A stretch of 46,550 nt of DNA from a virus. Below, piece after piece: positions 7,319 through 46,332 of this stretch. The stretch's first letter is position 1. The number at the start of each line of letters is the position of its first letter. The stretch lies in UHGV virus genome UHGV-0289467; one strand, 5' to 3'. Both the position numbers and the translations under genes were made by a program. Below the pieces are notes generated by a model. That model was not told the DNA's origin. It worked only from the letters and a program-made list of their open reading frames with translations, and searched no databases.

Positions 7319-7468
7319 ATGGAAGAGAAAAAGTATGTTGTTGAGTTCACTGAGGGTGAGCTTAATCAGGTAATGGAGTGTATCAAGCAGGCGTGGGCCG
7401 ATGGCTTTGAAGATAAAGACCTTGAGAGCGCAGGAAGCAAGATTGTCGACAGGCTTAATGACCTGTAA
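7319..7468 (+). CDS. hypothetical small acidic protein (49 aa)
   Basis: ORF below track cutoff; followed directly by terminator hairpin. Confidence 0.3.
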   Translation: MEEKKYVVEFTEGELNQVMECIKQAWADGFEDKDLESAGSKIVDRLNDL

Positions 7469-12643: not shown

Positions 12644-12892
12644 TTACTTGTTGCGATTATGGTATGCGGGGTAGAAGCTACTTAGCGGGAAAACCCAGAA
12701 TCTAAACAGCATCTCATCATATGATGGAACTTGATCATGAAATTTTTTCCCGGCGTCATATCCATTCGGGTCATGATGATAGAAAAATTCCATGAACTCG
12801 CGCCTCGTTTTATATACCATGTTGTTTCTGATGAGCATGTAGAAAAGGAATGCCAAAGCCATCAACAAAAGGAAAAGAATGATATCCATCAC
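12644..12892 (-). CDS. small membrane protein
   Basis: 82 aa, N-terminal TM (IILFLLLMALAFLFYMLI). Confidence 0.45.
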   Translation of the reverse strand: MMDIILFLLLMALAFLFYMLIRNNMVYKTRREFMEFFYHHDPNGYDAGKKFHDQVPSYDEMLFRFWVFPLSSFYPAYHNRNK

Positions 12893-14360: not shown

Positions 14361-16895
14361 TTATCTCCTGCTCCTTCTAATCCATCCAGAGCCTCGCTGT
14401 ACGATGTGATCGTTGCATGCATATCTGATTGCGTCAATGAAGTGGTTCCACGCATCCACAATATTTGTGAGCACGTTACCCGTCAGCTTGTCCACCTTGT
14501 AACTGTACATAGTGAACTCTTCCTGAGTCTGTGTGCAGCGGTCATGAATGATGATGCTGTCGCAACCCCTGAGCCAGGTTACACCCTCCTCCACGCTCCC
14601 GGGCCACTTATTGCATGGATGGATATCAAATCCTGCGCGTTTGATGTGACTGATTGTTTCTGGCCGAGAGCAGTCCCCATACCATCTTGCCTTCCTGGAG
14701 AGTGGGAATGATTGCTCCATCGCTGTAGGTGTGTCGGTAATCTCAAGGCCTACACGGCCGTATTCGCGCGCGACGTAAAGATTGCGTCGGTCATCAGGAA
14801 GTTTCTCAATGTAAACCTCAACCATCGCCGTTGCGTCCTGCGAGAATCCAAAGTCGATGCCAAAGTAAGGCCCATGCCATTCCGGCTTAACCTCGAAATC
14901 AGCAACGCGCCACTTACCGCCAAATACCTGCTCATCATTACGCTTATTAAAGCGCCCACCCCACACCCATTGATAGCGGTCGAAGTCGGTTTCTTTCATG
15001 CGCTGCATTTGGCTTGGGAGCGGAGTATCCCAGAACCACGGATTGTCTGAGTAATTACACTCGATAATCAGGTTTTCATCATCCTCATAGATGCCGCCAT
15101 TTTCGCGCAATTTATTATAAAAAGGCTCAACCCATATTTTCCACGTCGGGTCATGCTCTTTATTTGGGTTGAAAGTCACCCATATCTCTGACCCTTCAGC
15201 GCGGACTGTTGGGGTGAGGATTTCCCAGCTTGTCTGGCTGACGTTTTCCGCCTCCTCGACCCAAGCTACTGTAATGCCAGCGAAGCCTTTAACGGTCGTC
15301 TGGTTGCGATACAGCCCCTTAAATCTGAATTTTGCCTTCGTGCCTTTGTGGGTTATCTCATTATTGATGACGCGAAACTCTTTCGTTTCTCCCTTGCGAT
15401 CAATTTCGTCCTTCAGTTCCTGATATGAGCTATCTTCAATGGACTGCTGAATCTCACGAAAACAAGCTATCCTGTCAGGCTTAAAGCGTGCACGCTCCGT
15501 AAGTATTGTTGTTACTGTCCTTGTTTTTCCGCTGTTGTGTGTAACCGTGCCATCAGCAAGCAAGAAAAGATGATCGCCATCAAGAGTGAACCCAGCGTAT
15601 TCACCATGCCCGACATAAGACAATGACACCTCAGTCATCTTTCCACGGGTTGACTTGGTTTTCTCTGCTATCTTCCTTTTTACTCGGCATGGGATTGTAT
15701 GAAGGTCACCACTAACGAACACCTCCCATACGTCCTTTTCGTATATTCTTTTCTCACCTTTATATTCAAAGGTGATATCAGTCTTTTTGATTATGCTTGA
15801 CTTGAAGCCAAGCGATCTTGCCACATCCATCAAAGAGAAGGCCATTTCTTTATTTATTGATGTGAAAGAATAGCTTTTCTTTTTCTGGTCATAATGCGAA
15901 TCAGTATCCAATAGCCCAGCCAGAATCTGAAGTCTTACCTCTCTGCTGTTTTTGATATAGCAGTCAGGTATGTGTTTATTATTAATCACCCCAAGCTGCT
16001 GCATTTTAGTTAGTAACGGGTTGGTGTTCTTCCCCATGCCAGCAGCTCGACCATTAGTTATCGCATAGACAGGGCATCTATCATCGTCGCGAACCTTTAC
16101 CTGCATCCCGTATTGGCTTGCCACATTGTGAATGTAGTCAACTATCTCTGGATCAGGCGTGCACACTTCAACACCACGAGATGAACCATCACCTAACCAT
16201 AAACCAAGAAAGTACGGGTCAACTGGGACGCTTTGGTAATTAAAATCCCATCCTGTTCGCCACCCTTTAAAGACATGGCGGAACTTTTTGGAAGTTGCGC
16301 GCGACAAATATTCTGAAACACCAATATTCAGTATTTCAGGTTCATTCGGGTAATAACGATAAATTCTTTTACCATCCGGTGTTTTTGTCTCGTCACTGAT
16401 AGCAGATGGAATCTTTCGTAATGACAGTATGTGACTTGAGTTGACAGTGTAGTCATCAGCATATTTTTGATGAACCGTATACATGTCATCAAACCCCCGA
16501 CAGATGTTTAAAACATTTCGTGGTTTACTGTCTGGACCCATAACCTTATCGCCAACAACGATATCCTCTACGCGTTTTAGGCTACCATCAAACATCCTCA
16601 CCATCGTGCCGATGGCTAAGCATCCGCGCCCGCCAAACACAATCTTATTACGCTTGGGGTAAAGTAGCTTTTCCAGCTTTTCTGGTATCAGGTGATCAAC
16701 GCCAATATCAGAGTCGCTAACGTCATCAACTCCGCTTTGCGTCATTTTTAGTTTGCGAACAATCTGCTTATCTGTATTAACAACACCGAACACCGCAGAT
16801 TCAGGCGCATCAATCACGCCATCGCCAATAATCTCTTCGAGTTTTTCAATTGCTGGTGCTGAGAGTCTTTTGCGTGCCATATATAGATTCCTCAT
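14361..16895 (-). CDS. terminase large subunit, interrupted by an intein
   Basis: 844-aa ORF; N-extein ends …IVFGGRG, C-extein begins SGKTRTV… which rejoin to the Walker A box GGRGSGKT; C-terminal nuclease-like part; downstream of TerS. Confidence 0.9.
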   Translation of the reverse strand: MRNLYMARKRLSAPAIEKLEEIIGDGVIDAPESAVFGVVNTDKQIVRKLKMTQSGVDDVSDSDIGVDHLIPEKLEKLLYPKRNKIVFGGRGCLAIGTMVRMFDGSLKRVEDIVVGDKVMGPDSKPRNVLNICRGFDDMYTVHQKYADDYTVNSSHILSLRKIPSAISDETKTPDGKRIYRYYPNEPEILNIGVSEYLSRATSKKFRHVFKGWRTGWDFNYQSVPVDPYFLGLWLGDGSSRGVEVCTPDPEIVDYIHNVASQYGMQVKVRDDDRCPVYAITNGRAAGMGKNTNPLLTKMQQLGVINNKHIPDCYIKNSREVRLQILAGLLDTDSHYDQKKKSYSFTSINKEMAFSLMDVARSLGFKSSIIKKTDITFEYKGEKRIYEKDVWEVFVSGDLHTIPCRVKRKIAEKTKSTRGKMTEVSLSYVGHGEYAGFTLDGDHLFLLADGTVTHNSGKTRTVTTILTERARFKPDRIACFREIQQSIEDSSYQELKDEIDRKGETKEFRVINNEITHKGTKAKFRFKGLYRNQTTVKGFAGITVAWVEEAENVSQTSWEILTPTVRAEGSEIWVTFNPNKEHDPTWKIWVEPFYNKLRENGGIYEDDENLIIECNYSDNPWFWDTPLPSQMQRMKETDFDRYQWVWGGRFNKRNDEQVFGGKWRVADFEVKPEWHGPYFGIDFGFSQDATAMVEVYIEKLPDDRRNLYVAREYGRVGLEITDTPTAMEQSFPLSRKARWYGDCSRPETISHIKRAGFDIHPCNKWPGSVEEGVTWLRGCDSIIIHDRCTQTQEEFTMYSYKVDKLTGNVLTNIVDAWNHFIDAIRYACNDHIVQRGSGWIRRSRR
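15534..16622 (-). mobile_element. intein (363 aa) with LAGLIDADG homing endonuclease, inserted in the TerL P-loop
   Basis: starts with Cys (CLAIGTMV… block A), ends …LLADGTVTHN followed by Ser (+1); two LAGLIDADG motifs (FLGLWLGDGS and LAGLLDTDSH) in the middle. Confidence 0.85.
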
Positions 16896-40851: not shown

Positions 40852-40896
40852 GTTTAGAATCCTCTGTGTTTAGCTAAACAATCGCATTATATCATG

Positions 40897-40925
40897 TTGA
40901 CAGGTTTTGATTGGTGGTGTAGATT
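40897..40925 (+). promoter_or_regulatory. sigma70-type promoter TTGACA-N17-TAGATT upstream of tRNA genes
   Basis: TTGACA 40897-40902, TAGATT 40920-40925, about 17 nt before tRNA 5' end. Confidence 0.55.
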
Positions 40926-40942
40926 CGAATCAACAACGCAAC

Positions 40943-41020
40943 GCACCATTAGCTCAGCAGGATAGTAGCAACGGACTTCTAATCCGTAGGTCACTGGTTC
41001 GAATCCAGTATGGTGCACCA
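40943..41020 (+). tRNA. tRNA-Arg (anticodon UCU)
   Basis: GCACCAT/ATGGTGC acceptor stem, GGTTCGAATCC T-loop, anticodon loop CTTCTAA, encoded CCA; closely parallels E. coli argU architecture. Confidence 0.85.
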
Positions 41021-41023
41021 AAT

Positions 41024-41100
41024 TCCCGTTTAGCTTAACTGGTTAAAGCACCCGACTCATAATCGGATGATTACAGGTTCGAATCCTGTCGCGGGAACCA
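41024..41100 (+). tRNA. tRNA with CAU anticodon (Met elongator or Ile2/lysidine type)
   Basis: T-loop GGTTCGAATCC, D-stem GCTT/AAGC, anticodon loop CTCATAA, encoded CCA; anticodon arm CGACTCATAATCG identical to that of E. coli tRNA-Ile2(LAU). Confidence 0.7.
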
Positions 41101-43021: not shown

Positions 43022-43167
43022 TAATTATTCTCCGAATGATGAACTTCCAGCATCTGTACACCTGAACCAGCGAAAACGCTATGACGATAACGCCGATTGC
43101 TATATCCAATTTCGCCGCCTTACGTTTTTCAGGACGGAACAGCGCGGGGTGAGTGTTGTTGGTTTAA

Positions 43168-43211
43168 TTTTATCATAAAGTGTTGACGTAGATTGAGGGT
43201 GTCGCTATAGT
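43168..43211 (+). promoter_or_regulatory. promoter module TTTTATCATAA-N4-TTGACGTAGATTGA-N9-TATAGT
   Basis: TTGACG 43183-43188, 17-bp spacer, TATAGT 43206-43211; second copy TGACGTAGAAAC at 43214-43225. Confidence 0.55.
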
Positions 43212-43251
43212 GATGACGTAGAAACAACAATAAATGTTAGAGGTGATGAAT

Positions 43252-43542
43252 ATGAAAGGTTTTAAAGGTACGCCGGGGCCGTGGTCAGTTAATGAAATAG
43301 GCCAGCACTGGAATAATAAATGATTAACCCATCTAGAAGTTATTTTTGGCGAGGATGGTGAATGCATTTGCGACACTGTTTATCAGCGCGAAGATGCCAA
43401 TCTCATAGCCGCTGCGCCGGAGTTGCTGGAAGCATTGACTACAACACTCGATGAAATCGGGCATTGGTTATCACAACAAAAACCAGACCTTAAAGAAAAG
43501 ATGGCCTCTGCAATCGCCAAAGCGCTAGGAGAATCACAATGA
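43252..43542 (+). other. ORF interrupted by in-frame TGA (23 codons + TGA + 72 codons)
   Basis: MKGFKGTPGPWSVNEIGQHWNNK-TGA(43321-43323)-LTHLEVIFGEDGECICDTVYQREDANLIAAAPELLEALTTTLDEIGHWLSQQKPDLKEKMASAIAKALGESQ; downstream part is protein-like and contains the LIAAAPELLEAL motif. Confidence 0.4.
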
Positions 43543-43655
43543 TTCGCCACGAAATCCGCAAAGAAGATCTGAAGGCGTGGGATAAGTTCAAAATCAAGCT
43601 GGCATTAATAGTTATCGGATTCGCCATTGCCAGCGCAATCTGTTTATCAAAGTGA
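43539..43655 (+). CDS. small single-TM membrane protein (38 aa)
   Basis: MIRHEIRKEDLKAWDKFKIKLALIVIGFAIASAICLSK; ATGA coupling. Confidence 0.3.
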   Translation: MIRHEIRKEDLKAWDKFKIKLALIVIGFAIASAICLSK

Positions 43656-43662
43656 GGAAAAA

Positions 43663-44481
43663 ATGACATCTCTCGGAAAAATTTACTCAGACAAAGAAAC
43701 TCGCGGCGGAATCGTGGTCAACAAAGGTTATCAGGTTCCCGTCGACCAGCTTTATCTTGAACCGGGATACAACATCCGCGAAGCCGATGAGCAGCACGTT
43801 GAATACTTTGCGCAGTGCTGGGAATCAGGCCAGCCAATCCCGGCGTTAACTGTTATTCCTGATGCTGACGGAAAGCGCATCAAGATTCTTGACGGTCAGC
43901 ATCGTTACCTTGGCGCACTGCGTGCCATTGATCGCGGTGTACCAATTGCGCGCATTGAGTGCAAAGACTTCACCGGCGATGAAGCGGACAAAATCGCCTT
44001 CATGGTGTCATCCAGTCAAGGAAAGCAGCTTGACCCGCTTGAGCGTGCAAAGGCTTATGTGCGCCTGAAAGGGTTCGGATGGACGAATGAAGAAATCGCC
44101 AAGAAGGTTGGTCGCTCAGTTTCTGATGTGCAGATGCACCTGTCACTTGGTGATGTACCTGATTCCATCAAGCAACGCATCAATGCAGGCCAAATCAGCT
44201 ATGCCAACGCCGTTGCAGTGGCGCGTGAGCATGGCGATGATGCCGTTAACGTTATTGATGCTGCCGTTGAGGAAGCAAAAGCACAGGGCAAAGATAAGGT
44301 GACGGCCAAAACGCTCAAGGCCAAAAAAGTTAAGCCGATTGACCGCCTGATTCAGTTGCTGAAAGAAGCAGATCATATGGTGGTTGCTGAGGGTCATGTG
44401 GCACAGGAGACAGAAGAATTTTTGCGCCTTCCTTCCGCTGAGTTGAGTGAAGTTCTGGCTATTCTGGAGAAGCTGCGATGA
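43663..44481 (+). CDS. ParB N-terminal-domain (ParB/Srx-like) nuclease-like protein
   Basis: 272 aa from GAGGAA-supported ATG; …VPVDQLYLEPGYNIREAD…ALTVIPDADGKRIKILDGQHRYLGAL… matches the ParB/sulfiredoxin fold signature (DGxHR). Confidence 0.65.
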   Translation: MTSLGKIYSDKETRGGIVVNKGYQVPVDQLYLEPGYNIREADEQHVEYFAQCWESGQPIPALTVIPDADGKRIKILDGQHRYLGALRAIDRGVPIARIECKDFTGDEADKIAFMVSSSQGKQLDPLERAKAYVRLKGFGWTNEEIAKKVGRSVSDVQMHLSLGDVPDSIKQRINAGQISYANAVAVAREHGDDAVNVIDAAVEEAKAQGKDKVTAKTLKAKKVKPIDRLIQLLKEADHMVVAEGHVAQETEEFLRLPSAELSEVLAILEKLR

Positions 44482-44650
44482 ACCCCGAACAATTCATAGA
44501 GAAAAACCTGCGCGAAAAACTGCCAGGCATCGACAATGCGGCCATAGAGGCCGCAATTACCCACTACAGGCGCAACAAGAGTGAAAGGAAGGGCAAGACT
44601 TTCGATGAATGCTTGAAGGTTGCAAAACAACACATGGTGAAGGTGAAGTG
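44478..44650 (+). CDS. hypothetical small basic protein (57 aa)
   Basis: ATGA-coupled to ParB-like gene, below track cutoff. Confidence 0.3.
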
Positions 44651-45187
44651 ATGAAATTAAAAGTTAGCAAGTTGCTCCTTGAAGGTGCTTTGATATTTCA
44701 GGCCAAACAGGATGTGCGTTACTACCTGAATGGCATTTGCTTTATGCCTGATGGTCGCGTTGCCGCTACTGACGGTCATCGCGCCATGATTGCCAGTAAG
44801 CACGAAAACAAGATAAAAAGTAACGTCATCGTGTCGATAAGCAAGTCGCCGACAAAAAATTACTCCTATGCAGTGATTGATACCAGGGCAAAGATTGTCA
44901 CTTATCATAACAATTTTGATGTGCTGGTTGGCGCAGGTATTTGCTCTGAGGTTGGTGGCAAGTTCCCTGATATTGATCGCGTCATCCCGAAGCAGACTGC
45001 GCCAGCAGAACAGATTGGCTTTAATGCCAAATATCTGGCAGATGTTGAGAAGCTGGCGAAGCTGTTTAGCCCGAAATGTGAAAGCGTACGCTTTGAACTG
45101 AACGGAAACATCAACGCCGCCGTCGCAAACATCAGCGCGCCCACTGGCGAGACTGCCAAAGTTATTGTTATGCCAATGAGGATTTAG
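44651..45187 (+). CDS. truncated DNA polymerase III beta sliding clamp (DnaN) homolog, domains II-III only
   Basis: 178 aa; [33 protein letters not shown]… aligns with E. coli DnaN …[35 protein letters not shown]…; C-terminus …[10 protein letters not shown] aligns with …AAYVVMPMRL. Confidence 0.75.
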   Translation: [178 protein letters not shown]

Positions 45188-45189
45188 TG

Positions 45190-45441
45190 ATGAAAAAGAA
45201 TGGCGTTTTTACTCAGAAGGACGGCTCAAAAGTTGCCCGTCTTGGTGATGGTTACGTTGGCATTAAATTTGGCTCTTGCCATGGTGAAAAGTTAATAGCC
45301 ATTGCGAATATCATAAATCGTGGAGTGCCGGGCGATGAAGTTGATGATATTGATGAGGCGCAAATTTATATCACATTCAAAGACAACGCCTCAATTCAGC
45401 GGCTGATTGATGGCCTCGTCAATCTCCGCGACCATAAGTAA
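45190..45441 (+). CDS. hypothetical protein
   Basis: 83 aa, last gene of island, followed by terminator. Confidence 0.4.
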   Translation: MKKNGVFTQKDGSKVARLGDGYVGIKFGSCHGEKLIAIANIINRGVPGDEVDDIDEAQIYITFKDNASIQRLIDGLVNLRDHK

Positions 45442-45442
45442 A

Positions 45443-45470
45443 CAAAGCCCCTTTCGGGGCTTTTCTTTTA
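45443..45470. terminator. bidirectional rho-independent terminator
   Basis: AAAGCCCCtttcGGGGCTTTTCTTTT. Confidence 0.7.
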
Positions 45471-46289
45471 TCACGGAAGATAAGCGTCATCCTCAAACCA
45501 CGAAACGTAAGCATTGATATTTTGCGCCGCAGTATCCAGCGATGTGATGCGTAACAGATAGGTGGTATTGGGCGCCATGATGACCTGCTCACCAAGTTTT
45601 GCCTGTGAATTACCCTGCCCCTGGTTTGATGCGTTCCCTTCACTATACGTCGCGGCCGCCGTCAGCTGACCAATACTTGTCACCGTAGAGCCAGTCAGAA
45701 GCTGCGCTGTTGCAGTATGCGGTGCGATGTCATTTGGGTTATTAATCTCCGCAGCGGTGCCTCCTGTTGCTACAGCTCCACGGTAAATTGACGCTACGAC
45801 ACCTTTCCCGGTGTAGCCAATGATACGCTGGTTAAAAACGACCTGTTTTGACCCGGTAATAAAAATACTGTCAAGGTTAGCCCCGCCAGCGACATCAGTC
45901 ACGCGACGAGATGCATTGAATAGCTTTCCCTGCTTATTGGCAAGCTCAGTATAGGGCTGAGCGACGACCTGACTTGATGGCACTGAGGTGTCAGCTCGCC
46001 ACACCAGGACTTTCAGGGATGCAACGCCGACAGGGAGCTGTGACTTTATCACTTTCAGTCGCAGTGCCACACCATAATAATTATTATTGTTGACATCAAT
46101 CCAGAAGTCACCAGATGCAAAAGGCGACACCATTATGGAAACAGATCCGCTTGTTAATGGTGCGTGACCGCCGGAAGAGTTTAATGGCACAATCTGCACC
46201 TGCAATGCAGTCCAGTCTGCTGACATGGTTTCGCTAAGCAAAACCTCTCCGTCAGCCGGAGTTGTGTTTATTTCGTACCTGACAGCCAT
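45471..46289 (-). CDS. hypothetical beta-rich structural protein
   Basis: 272 aa from GGGGG-supported ATG; Thr/Ser/Gly/Val-rich, no TM; lies in the late structural region. Confidence 0.4.
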   Translation of the reverse strand: MAVRYEINTTPADGEVLLSETMSADWTALQVQIVPLNSSGGHAPLTSGSVSIMVSPFASGDFWIDVNNNNYYGVALRLKVIKSQLPVGVASLKVLVWRADTSVPSSQVVAQPYTELANKQGKLFNASRRVTDVAGGANLDSIFITGSKQVVFNQRIIGYTGKGVVASIYRGAVATGGTAAEINNPNDIAPHTATAQLLTGSTVTSIGQLTAAATYSEGNASNQGQGNSQAKLGEQVIMAPNTTYLLRITSLDTAAQNINAYVSWFEDDAYLP

Positions 46290-46298
46290 GATAACCCC

Positions 46299-46332
46299 CA
46301 ATAAAAAACCCGCTTGTTTGCGGGTTTATTTT
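46299..46332. terminator. rho-independent terminator
   Basis: AAAAAACCCGCttgttGCGGGTTTATTTT. Confidence 0.6.

Follow-up and report, generated by a model that had tools for sequence, protein, structure and literature searches.

The viral genome UHGV-0289467, a stretch of 46,550 nucleotides that we refer to as the window, contains an island of six plus-strand open reading frames (ORFs) embedded between minus-strand virion genes. Two of the island's products are variants of well-known protein families. One is an orphan member of the ParB family, whose model has the full ParB/KorB/Noc fold. The other, which we call the mini-clamp, is a shortened relative of the bacterial beta sliding clamp (DnaN) that is predicted to be unable to close into a normal ring and that, judged by its conserved residues, keeps the pocket in which the partners of the clamp dock. 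The explanation that we favour, and to which we give about an even chance of being right, is that the island is an early DNA-transaction operon in which the ParB-like protein acts as a KorB-like switch and the mini-clamp acts, through its pocket, as a receptor or decoy.

A reduced sliding clamp with a conserved docking pocket

The mini-clamp matches enterobacterial DnaN with an E-value of 7e-15. Its residues 7-117 correspond to DnaN residues 136-253, which make up domain II, and its residues 120-178 correspond to DnaN residues 315-366, the C-terminal half of domain III. Some gene calls place its start at an alternative ATG at position 44609, giving a product of 192 amino acids (aa). An AlphaFold2 model based on 89 diverse homologues has a predicted local distance difference test score (pLDDT) of 96.9 and a predicted template modelling score (pTM) of 0.90, and when this model was compared with the PDB using Foldseek, the top of the list consisted of beta clamps only. 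We are confident, on the basis of this model, that the mini-clamp is a 1.5-domain derivative of the beta clamp. The ring-closing interface, made by domain I together with the N-terminal half of domain III, is absent from both the alignment and the model, and the second inner, DNA-facing helix of domain II is a loop. With these losses, the modelled protein is predicted to be incapable of forming a normal ring. The mini-clamp is basic, with an isoelectric point (pI) of 9.4.

An earlier note on this DNA, made from the sequence alone, had described the protein as clamp-like and as a DnaN fragment. The homology to the beta clamp stands, but the protein is not a chance piece of it. Its family is large, and its members are similar in length, with 144 cluster representatives at E <= 1e-10, nearly all of them 170-220 aa long; 257 phage records contain it. 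The protein stays below the thresholds of the usual domain models, with a score of 42.1 bits against the NCBIfam dnaN model TIGR00663 (cut-off 137.65) and matches to Pfam DNA_pol3_beta_2 and _3 that are below the gathering cut-offs. Many models in the BFVD database have the mini-clamp fold, with TM-scores up to 0.89, and all of them are either uncharacterised or labelled "Pol III beta". In a full-text literature search we found no described truncated or DnaN-like phage clamp and no clamp decoy, and neither the mini-clamp family nor the ParB-like family was found to have been characterised.

To define the docking pocket we used the 18 residues of subsites I and II, which bind clamp-binding motifs, as listed in a review (PMC11139829). 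All 18 fall in the segments that the mini-clamp has kept, and it is identical to the Escherichia coli protein at 15 of them, as compared to 45 of 147 residues elsewhere. Among the 89 family members, the fraction that carries the E. coli residue averages 0.72 at pocket positions and 0.19 at the others (permutation P < 1e-5; none of 100,000 permutations reached the observed value). Seventeen positions are conserved in at least 80% of the family; all 17 are identical or similar to E. coli beta, most of them belong to the pocket, and no second conserved surface stands out among them. By these sequence comparisons, the mini-clamp retains the partner-docking pocket. A monomeric variant of beta (I272A/L273A) is reported to bind the clamp loader's delta subunit about 50-fold more tightly than the ring does, with no tethering or processivity of DNA polymerase III (Pol III) (PMC11139829), which implies that a pocket-only protein could be a potent competitor. 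When we scanned all ORFs of the phage for canonical clamp-binding motifs, we obtained only loose matches or matches in non-coding frames. Because of this, and because the mini-clamp gene is solitary in unrelated phages (see below), its partner is probably encoded by the host.

An orphan ParB-family protein with a remodelled pocket

Homologues and the gene calls on near-identical contigs indicate that the ParB-like protein starts at the ATG at 43663, giving 272 aa, and not at the TTG at 43627. With Pfam it scores 43.5 bits against HTH_ParB, where 22.6 is required, and 27 bits against KorB, where 22.3 is required. Its 43.3 bits against NCBIfam TIGR00180 (parB_part) fall short of the cut-off of 58.45, and it matches phrog_1033 at 1.6e-86. 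Its alignment to Thermus Spo0J spans the N-terminal domain and the helix-turn-helix (HTH). The AlphaFold2 model (33 homologues, pLDDT 85) begins with an alpha/beta domain at the N-terminus, continues with a helical DNA-binding domain and ends in a small alpha/beta domain at the C-terminus, and its best Foldseek matches are KorB of plasmid RK2 (8qa9; the top match), Caulobacter ParB (6t1f) and Noc (7nfu), with E-values of about 1e-9 over about 210 columns. As modelled, the protein thus has the full fold of this group, with a ParB/Srx N-terminal domain, an HTH and a C-terminal domain.

The nucleotide pocket of the N-terminal domain differs from the canonical one. Box II, canonically GERR, is DGQHR (DG[QH]HR in the family) and keeps only the last Arg, and box III, canonically ENLQR, is SSSQG. 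Both DG[QH]HR and SSSQG are invariant in the 33 homologues, down to 41% identity. Because these positions are invariant although non-canonical, they suggest a pocket that has been selected and is chemically different, rather than one that has decayed. In KorB (by its own numbering) R117 is needed for binding of cytidine triphosphate (CTP), and N146 for hydrolysis and clamp closure (PMC11790492). The DGxHR motif resembles that of non-canonical members of the Srx/DndB type, with a weak match to the NCBIfam DGQHR domain (TIGR03187, E = 0.003, well under the cut-off).

Neither the annotations of the closest relative nor the window's large non-structural ORFs include a ParA. The ParB-like protein is therefore not part of a ParABS partition system; it is an orphan ParB-family member in virulent phages, and the "partition-like" function that the earlier note had entertained is not supported. 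The first eight residues of the protein (43663-43686) are conserved down to 41% identity, with M1 and L4 invariant and Y8 nearly so (consensus MxTLxQxY). The corresponding peptide of ParB and KorB is the part that binds ParA or IncC; in the phage protein, which has no ParA to bind, it may dock another partner.

A search for parS sites and KorB operators in the genome found no recurrent palindrome, and no OB-like sites above chance. There is one parS-like, perfect 14-bp palindrome, TGTTTAGCTAAACA, at 40867-40880, which lies 16 nt upstream of the start of the major tail protein gene (minus strand). In its arms it is similar to parS (TGTTTCAC/GTGAAACA) and to the half-site of the KorB operator (TTTAGC), and it is identical in Flyfo siphovirus Tbat1_6 and phage DP01. 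It is present in a single copy, and weaker matches to it are unconvincing. TGTTTAGCTAAACA could be a binding site of the ParB-like protein.

A promoter motif shared with recombination genes

The island is a single self-contained operon, consisting of a promoter, six plus-strand ORFs and a terminator (Table 1). Successive genes overlap or abut (ATGA, ATGA, TGATG), and they therefore form one operon. The earlier note had proposed a plus-strand unit with a promoter at 43183 and a terminator at 45443, and both elements are indeed present at or near those positions.

The TTGACGTAGATT motif, which is the most over-represented 12-mer of the genome, includes the -35 hexamer of the island promoter. With up to two mismatches, the motif, TTGACGTAGATT(GA), has nine sites in the genome as compared to 0.31 expected, and all nine are directly upstream of non-structural gene clusters, including the RecE-like, ERF and SSB genes. 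A second plus-strand island, at about 38.9-40.1 kb, is also headed by one of them. Within the motif, a -35-like hexamer (TTGACG) is linked to a -10-like one (TAGATT); where copies stand in tandem, as they do at several sites, their spacing pairs the -35 of one with the -10 of the next. The motif is conserved in Tbat1_6, DP01, KFS-SE2 and seszw, and it is absent from T1. The operon shares its promoter class with the recombination genes, and from this we infer early expression driven by the host RNA polymerase; a search of the transcriptomics literature on Drexlerviridae found no data on expression timing.

The promoter region (43150-43250) differs by one base in Tbat1_6 and by none in DP01, and the coding sequence of ORF1 diverges. 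Two direct copies of TGACGTAGA are located at the promoter, one over the -35 and one just past the -10. Both copies are kept in KFS-SE2 and seszw, where the spacer has diverged. At one more distant locus (L020) the -35 motif is altered and the second copy is absent. The pairing suggests that the TGACGTAGA copies are a candidate operator pair.

At the other end of the operon, the terminator hairpin is followed by UUUUCUUUU and has a folding energy of -14 kcal/mol (z = -4.2; no shuffled sequence folds equally well). It also ends the convergent minus-strand gene at 45471-46301. Near-identical GC-rich hairpin terminators, with the structure AAAGCCCC-loop-GGGGCTTT and flanking runs of A and T, occur at 7465, 14331, 40066 and 45437; they are located where transcription converges and are apparently bidirectional.

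The two genes are separable

The mini-clamp has no ParB-like neighbour in Kagunavirus XY2 (L005), Bcep781 (L006), Shewanella phage 1/41 (L007) or Proteus phage 2207-N35 (L008), and in the first three of these it stands alone. In all four of these unrelated groups the gene is transcribed antisense within the structural module, with head or tail genes on either side. The Bcep781 copy is gp15, which is annotated as "DNA Pol III b subunit fragment". Conversely, the natural relative KP591P1 has no mini-clamp and keeps the ParB-like, 57-aa and 83-aa genes.

Further data come from a CRISPR-based genome reduction of Skatevirus seszw, from which dozens of viable mutant genomes were deposited (PMC9825161). 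We counted genes in the deposited records with at least 99% identity. The ParB-like gene and the ORF1 homologue were each found in 70 records, and the mini-clamp in 47 (23 of the 70 lack it). For example, in seszw_300S (36,991 bp) both the mini-clamp and the 57-aa gene are gone and the ParB-like gene remains. The mini-clamp is dispensable on the laboratory host. The ParB-like gene, being kept in every seszw record, is apparently indispensable, though the authors did not target every gene. About 68 Salmonella hits in similarity searches ('Salmonella phage seszw', MZ3752xx-MZ3753xx and OL9647xx) are engineered mutants of this one phage; they inflate the counts of hosts and organisms, and double as a data set on gene dispensability.

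The ParB-like gene is core to the clade, and the mini-clamp and the small ORFs are accessory, so the label "accessory island" that the earlier note had used applies to the latter and not to the former. The same note had read the co-location of the ParB-like and clamp-like genes as a sign of joint function. This is not supported, because the mini-clamp is solitary in unrelated phages, absent from KP591P1 and deleted in viable seszw mutants; the two genes are for the most part not an obligate pair.

Homologues of both genes also occur in lambdoid phages. A ParB-like homologue with 45% identity is situated between YdaS/YdaT and Phage_rep_O/DnaB, directly upstream of the latter, and a mini-clamp with 44% identity lies between cII and O/P-like genes. 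On another lambdoid contig (L030, 3576-4552) the mini-clamp is in the nin region, immediately after a true RusA gene (PF05866). For both genes, the lambdoid homologues lie in the early right operon.

What the operon may do

The window encodes DUF3987, primase-type, helicase, RecE-like, ERF and SSB proteins. No DNA polymerase was found among its large non-structural ORFs, and the phage must therefore use the host replisome. We propose that the island is an operon of non-structural genes, probably expressed early, that serves a phage without a DNA polymerase of its own. The ParB-like protein would most likely bind specific sites in the phage DNA via its HTH, and its remodelled N-terminal nucleotide pocket would most likely act as a switch controlling phage replication, early promoters, or both; the role that we favour for it is replication control or a KorB-like shut-off of TGACGTAGA promoters. 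The mini-clamp would be a soluble receptor or decoy for clamp-binding motifs, acting through its pocket. The proteins that it might capture include clamp-loader delta, Hda, the Pol III alpha subunit, MutS/MutL and the translesion synthesis polymerases, and their capture would tilt the host DNA machinery in the phage's favour. The earlier note had suggested a role in DNA transactions rather than a structural one, and this broad reading agrees with the promoter class that the operon shares with recombination genes and with the position of the lambdoid homologues.

We also put forward, as less likely than not, a wider version of this proposal. The mini-clamp family would be a widespread and undescribed group of pocket-only clamp mimics, each a sponge for clamp-binding motifs that disarms or redirects host replication, repair or clamp-loading proteins, and the neighbouring KorB-like protein, with its new pocket chemistry (DGxHR/SSSQG), would control a regulon of nine TGACGTAGA promoters.

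Several observations weigh against the favoured explanation. A phage that relies on host Pol III would itself suffer if Pol III or the clamp loader were sequestered wholesale, so the ligand may be narrower, or the mini-clamp may recruit its partner instead. The pocket is also the most conserved part of cellular clamps, and part of the conservation signal is possibly an inherited structural constraint. Because the mini-clamp can be deleted on a laboratory host and is missing in natural relatives, any benefit from it would have to be conditional. The ParB-like protein does not have the canonical GERR and ENLQR, which makes it uncertain whether it behaves as a CTP switch, and no repeated palindromic parS-like site was found in the genome.

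The alternative that survives best, which we nevertheless think doubtful, is that the ParB-like protein is mainly a KorB-like global regulator that shuts nine early-type promoters, including its own, by binding TGACGTAGA repeats which overlap their -35 and start sites, and that the rest of the island is cargo. KorB is its top structural match, and the TTGACGTAGATT motif (the most over-represented 11-12-mer) has its nine sites, against 0.31 expected, all at non-structural clusters. The two TGACGTAGA copies have outlasted the divergence of the spacer in KFS-SE2 and seszw, T1 has neither the motif nor the ParB-like gene, and the gene was never lost from the reduced genomes. However, TGACGTAGA is a direct repeat and not a palindrome, and because the motif holds -35-like and -10-like hexamers, its recurrence may partly reflect promoter sequence. 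The phage also encodes a winged-helix/MarR-like regulator that could be the TGACGTAGA binder, the second repeat is missing in L020, and in lambdoid phages, where the ParB-like homologues are beside replication genes, no such regulon is evident.

A second possibility, which we consider unlikely, is that the mini-clamp is a processivity factor that tethers host Pol III, either as a ring of four subunits or in a ring mixed with host beta. Two 1.5-domain subunits equal the three domains of one beta monomer, and the protein is a basic DnaN homologue (pI 9.4) that has kept the polymerase-docking pocket in a phage without a polymerase. Such a ring is difficult to reconcile with the loss of the beta dimer interface and the replacement of the inner helix of domain II by a loop, with a monomer model that is compact and confident (pTM 0.90), and with the absence of a phage clamp loader. 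Moreover, replication is essential and the mini-clamp is dispensable.

We find it equally improbable that the island is an anti-defence locus that neutralises bacterial immune systems. What lies between the conserved genes is variable (C5 methylase, endonuclease VII, HNH), the mini-clamp is accessory, the promoter is of the early type, and some RefSeq records call the ORF1 homologues 'anti-restriction protein'. We found no basis for this name, as the matching family, phrog_1273, has no assigned function; PADLOC gave no meaningful matches, and the lambdoid homologues are among replication genes.

Slightly less credible still is a version of the earlier note's proposal in which the ParB-like protein, acting in concert with the DnaN fragment, is a nuclease or nucleoside triphosphatase directed against host DNA, which it would attack or interfere with. 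The ParB/Srx superfamily does include nucleases, and the DGxHR-type motif is common to its non-canonical members, as in the sub-threshold TIGR03187 match. But no nuclease family in Pfam or NCBIfam matched the protein, its closest folds (KorB, ParB and Noc) and its complete HTH plus C-terminal architecture fit sequence-specific DNA-binding clamps rather than an isolated nuclease domain of ParB type, and its gene is genetically separable from that of the mini-clamp. Finally, the idea that the clamp-like gene encodes a RusA-like Holliday junction resolvase has nothing but a database label (PHROG 3007, RefSeq) behind it and is refuted as a mis-annotation by tests of both sequence and fold, since Pfam RusA (PF05866) does not match even at E <= 1 and the beta clamp is the only match; the error plausibly arose from adjacency of RusA and mini-clamp genes, as in L030.

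The small ORFs of the operon

Table 1. Features of the operon and its promoter motif in the window.
Feature	Position	Strand	Remarks
Sigma-70-type promoter	43183-43211	+	TTGACG-17 nt-TATAGT; 10/12 consensus matches
TTGACGTAGATT(GA) sites	5779, 8669, 13563, 13922, 13939, 19474(-), 25801, 38902, 43183		motif scan
Two direct copies of TGACGTAGA	43184-43192, 43214-43222	+	over the -35; just past the -10
ORF1	43252-43542	+	in-frame TGA at 43321-43323
38-aa hydrophobic peptide	43539-43655	+	start overlaps ORF1 stop (ATGA)
ParB-like gene	43663-44481	+	272 aa
57-aa basic protein	44478-44651	+	phrog_4439; pI 9.7
Mini-clamp (clamp-like gene)	44651-45187	+	178 aa
83-aa ORF	45190-45441	+	no family match
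Bidirectional intrinsic terminator	45444-45472 (hairpin 45444-45463)	both	8-bp GC-rich stem, 4-nt loop, U-tract

ORF1 is a frame of 96 codons that is open except for a TGA at codon 24. This codon is TCA (Ser) in phage DP01 and in five near-identical metagenomic contigs (L015-L019), which encode an intact 96-aa ORF1 and exactly the same clamp-like protein as the window. Over 2400 nt of the island, a single nucleotide separates the window from L015, and it is the one that creates the stop codon (C to G at 43322, TCA to TGA), so the change is private to the window. The interruption is a recent nonsense mutation or an error, and not a programmed feature; the earlier note was right that ORF1 contains an in-frame stop, which comes down to one private substitution in a gene that is intact on those five contigs. 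The intact products on L015-L019 match Pfam PF27050 (Phage_P22_Y8K6). The window's own copy, owing to the TGA at codon 24, does not yield the intact match of about 96 aa, and when repaired it matches phrog_1273 at 2.9e-22.

The 38-aa peptide contains one hydrophobic helix. Annotations of Tbat1_6, DP01 and KP591P1 have it in an equivalent position and at equal length, and gene calls on L015-L019 include it; we could not assign it to a family. The 57-aa gene is translationally coupled on both sides. It is conserved directly upstream of the mini-clamp in the clade, is kept in KP591P1 where there is no mini-clamp, and was lost early in the seszw mutants. The 83-aa ORF is optional, being present in Tbat1_6, KP591P1, L015-17 and L019, and absent from DP01, KFS-SE2 and YX3973. 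The ORF1, 57-aa and 83-aa proteins had no match in PDB sequence or NCBIfam searches, and for the 83-aa ORF Pfam and PHROG searches were also negative. A 12-14-mer, (G)AGGTGAAGTGATG, occurs at four gene junctions, at 12887(-), 26811, 27014 and 44641, the last of which is where the 57-aa gene meets the mini-clamp. The element joins a Shine-Dalgarno sequence to a stop codon and a start codon that overlap (TGATG), and acts as a reused cassette for translational coupling.

Genome context

The window is the genome of a virulent-type siphovirus of about 46.5 kb. The island matches Tbat1_6 at 94% identity; further matches, at 77-93%, are to many phages of Klebsiella, Salmonella and Escherichia. Among the latter, Salmonella virus KFS-SE2 has been placed in the genus Skatevirus. 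In the BASEL paper, which does not describe the genes of the island, Skatevirus covers the entire cluster and Roufvirus stands at the root. The phage is Skatevirus/Roufvirus-like. We rejected a T1-like identity, because T1 has no comparable island, ParB-like gene or TTGACGTAGATT motif.

The flanks on both sides are minus-strand virion genes, with neck genes on one side and head genes on the other; the earlier note had placed the unit between minus-strand connector genes and late structural genes. The left flank comprises phrog_13738 (a membrane protein), phrog_786/797 and a Neck1/tail-completion protein, and the right flank comprises phrog_5335 and phrog_2138, beyond which comes the major head protein, at the start of the window. 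The minus-strand gene that adjoins the terminator (45471-46301; 273-276 aa, phrog_5335) is present in Tbat1_6, DP01 and KP591P1 and absent from KFS-SE2, YX3973 and seszw, so the right border of the island is variable too.

Elsewhere in the genome, the TerL ORF (14361-16895, minus strand) is 844 aa long as compared to about 475 aa in Tbat1_6. Its residues ~92-373 contain Hint, Hom_end and LAGLIDADG domains, which constitute an intein with a homing endonuclease. Two tRNA genes, tRNA-Arg(TCT) and tRNA-Met(CAT), are located at 40897-41100 between the major tail gene and the neck genes, preceded by a promoter-like sequence (TTGACA-17-TAGATT); DP01 has an additional tRNA-Ser at this place. We could not locate a replication origin by GC skew, because the skew merely follows gene orientation.

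Significance and comparison with known systems

Both proteins are variants of known families, and the functions that we give them, beyond fold and conservation, are proposals. The interaction hub of the bacterial clamp is an active antibiotic target. Should the mini-clamp indeed act as a decoy by its pocket alone, nature would have supplied a compact probe and inhibitor of that hub, and phages would have a host-takeover factor of a new kind. Members of the family are common; in databases they go under the name of a polymerase subunit or, incorrectly, of a RusA resolvase. The ParB-like protein could extend the theme, seen in KorB and Noc, of ParB-family proteins with roles other than partition. 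For annotation, the single-base private change that creates the ORF1 stop should be rechecked, and the "RusA-like" label should be dropped.

With KorB of RK2, chromosomal ParB and Noc, which are DNA-sliding clamps that depend on CTP, the phage protein has in common the ParB/Srx domain, the HTH and the C-terminal domain, and it differs from them in having DG(Q/H)HR in place of GERR and SSSQG in place of ENLQR. As with KorB, its gene resides in a genome with a many-copy, promoter-associated motif; unlike KorB, it belongs to a virulent phage genome that has no ParA/IncC or KorA partner and in which no palindromic operator was identified.

The mini-clamp has the same domain fold as E. coli DnaN (PDB 1MMI/2POL), and the motifs FPDxxRVxP, GFNxxY and VMPMR are common to both. 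DnaN has 366 aa in three domains, as compared to 178 aa in the mini-clamp, which is phage-encoded, dispensable and basic rather than ring-forming. The nearest functional analogue for what the mini-clamp might do as a pocket-only protein is the monomeric I272A/L273A beta, likewise a non-ring clamp with an intact pocket; that protein is an engineered, full-length, three-domain molecule, whereas the mini-clamp is a natural 1.5-domain one known from its sequence and model. Small proteins of the Staphylococcus phages Twort and G1 target the host clamp. The MuC protein of phage Mu uses the clamp for late transcription (PMC12867686). Like the mini-clamp as we interpret it, these are phage strategies built on the interface between the clamp and its partners. 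They have no homology to the mini-clamp, and the direction of the interaction differs: they bind the host clamp, whereas the mini-clamp would imitate the clamp's own binding site.

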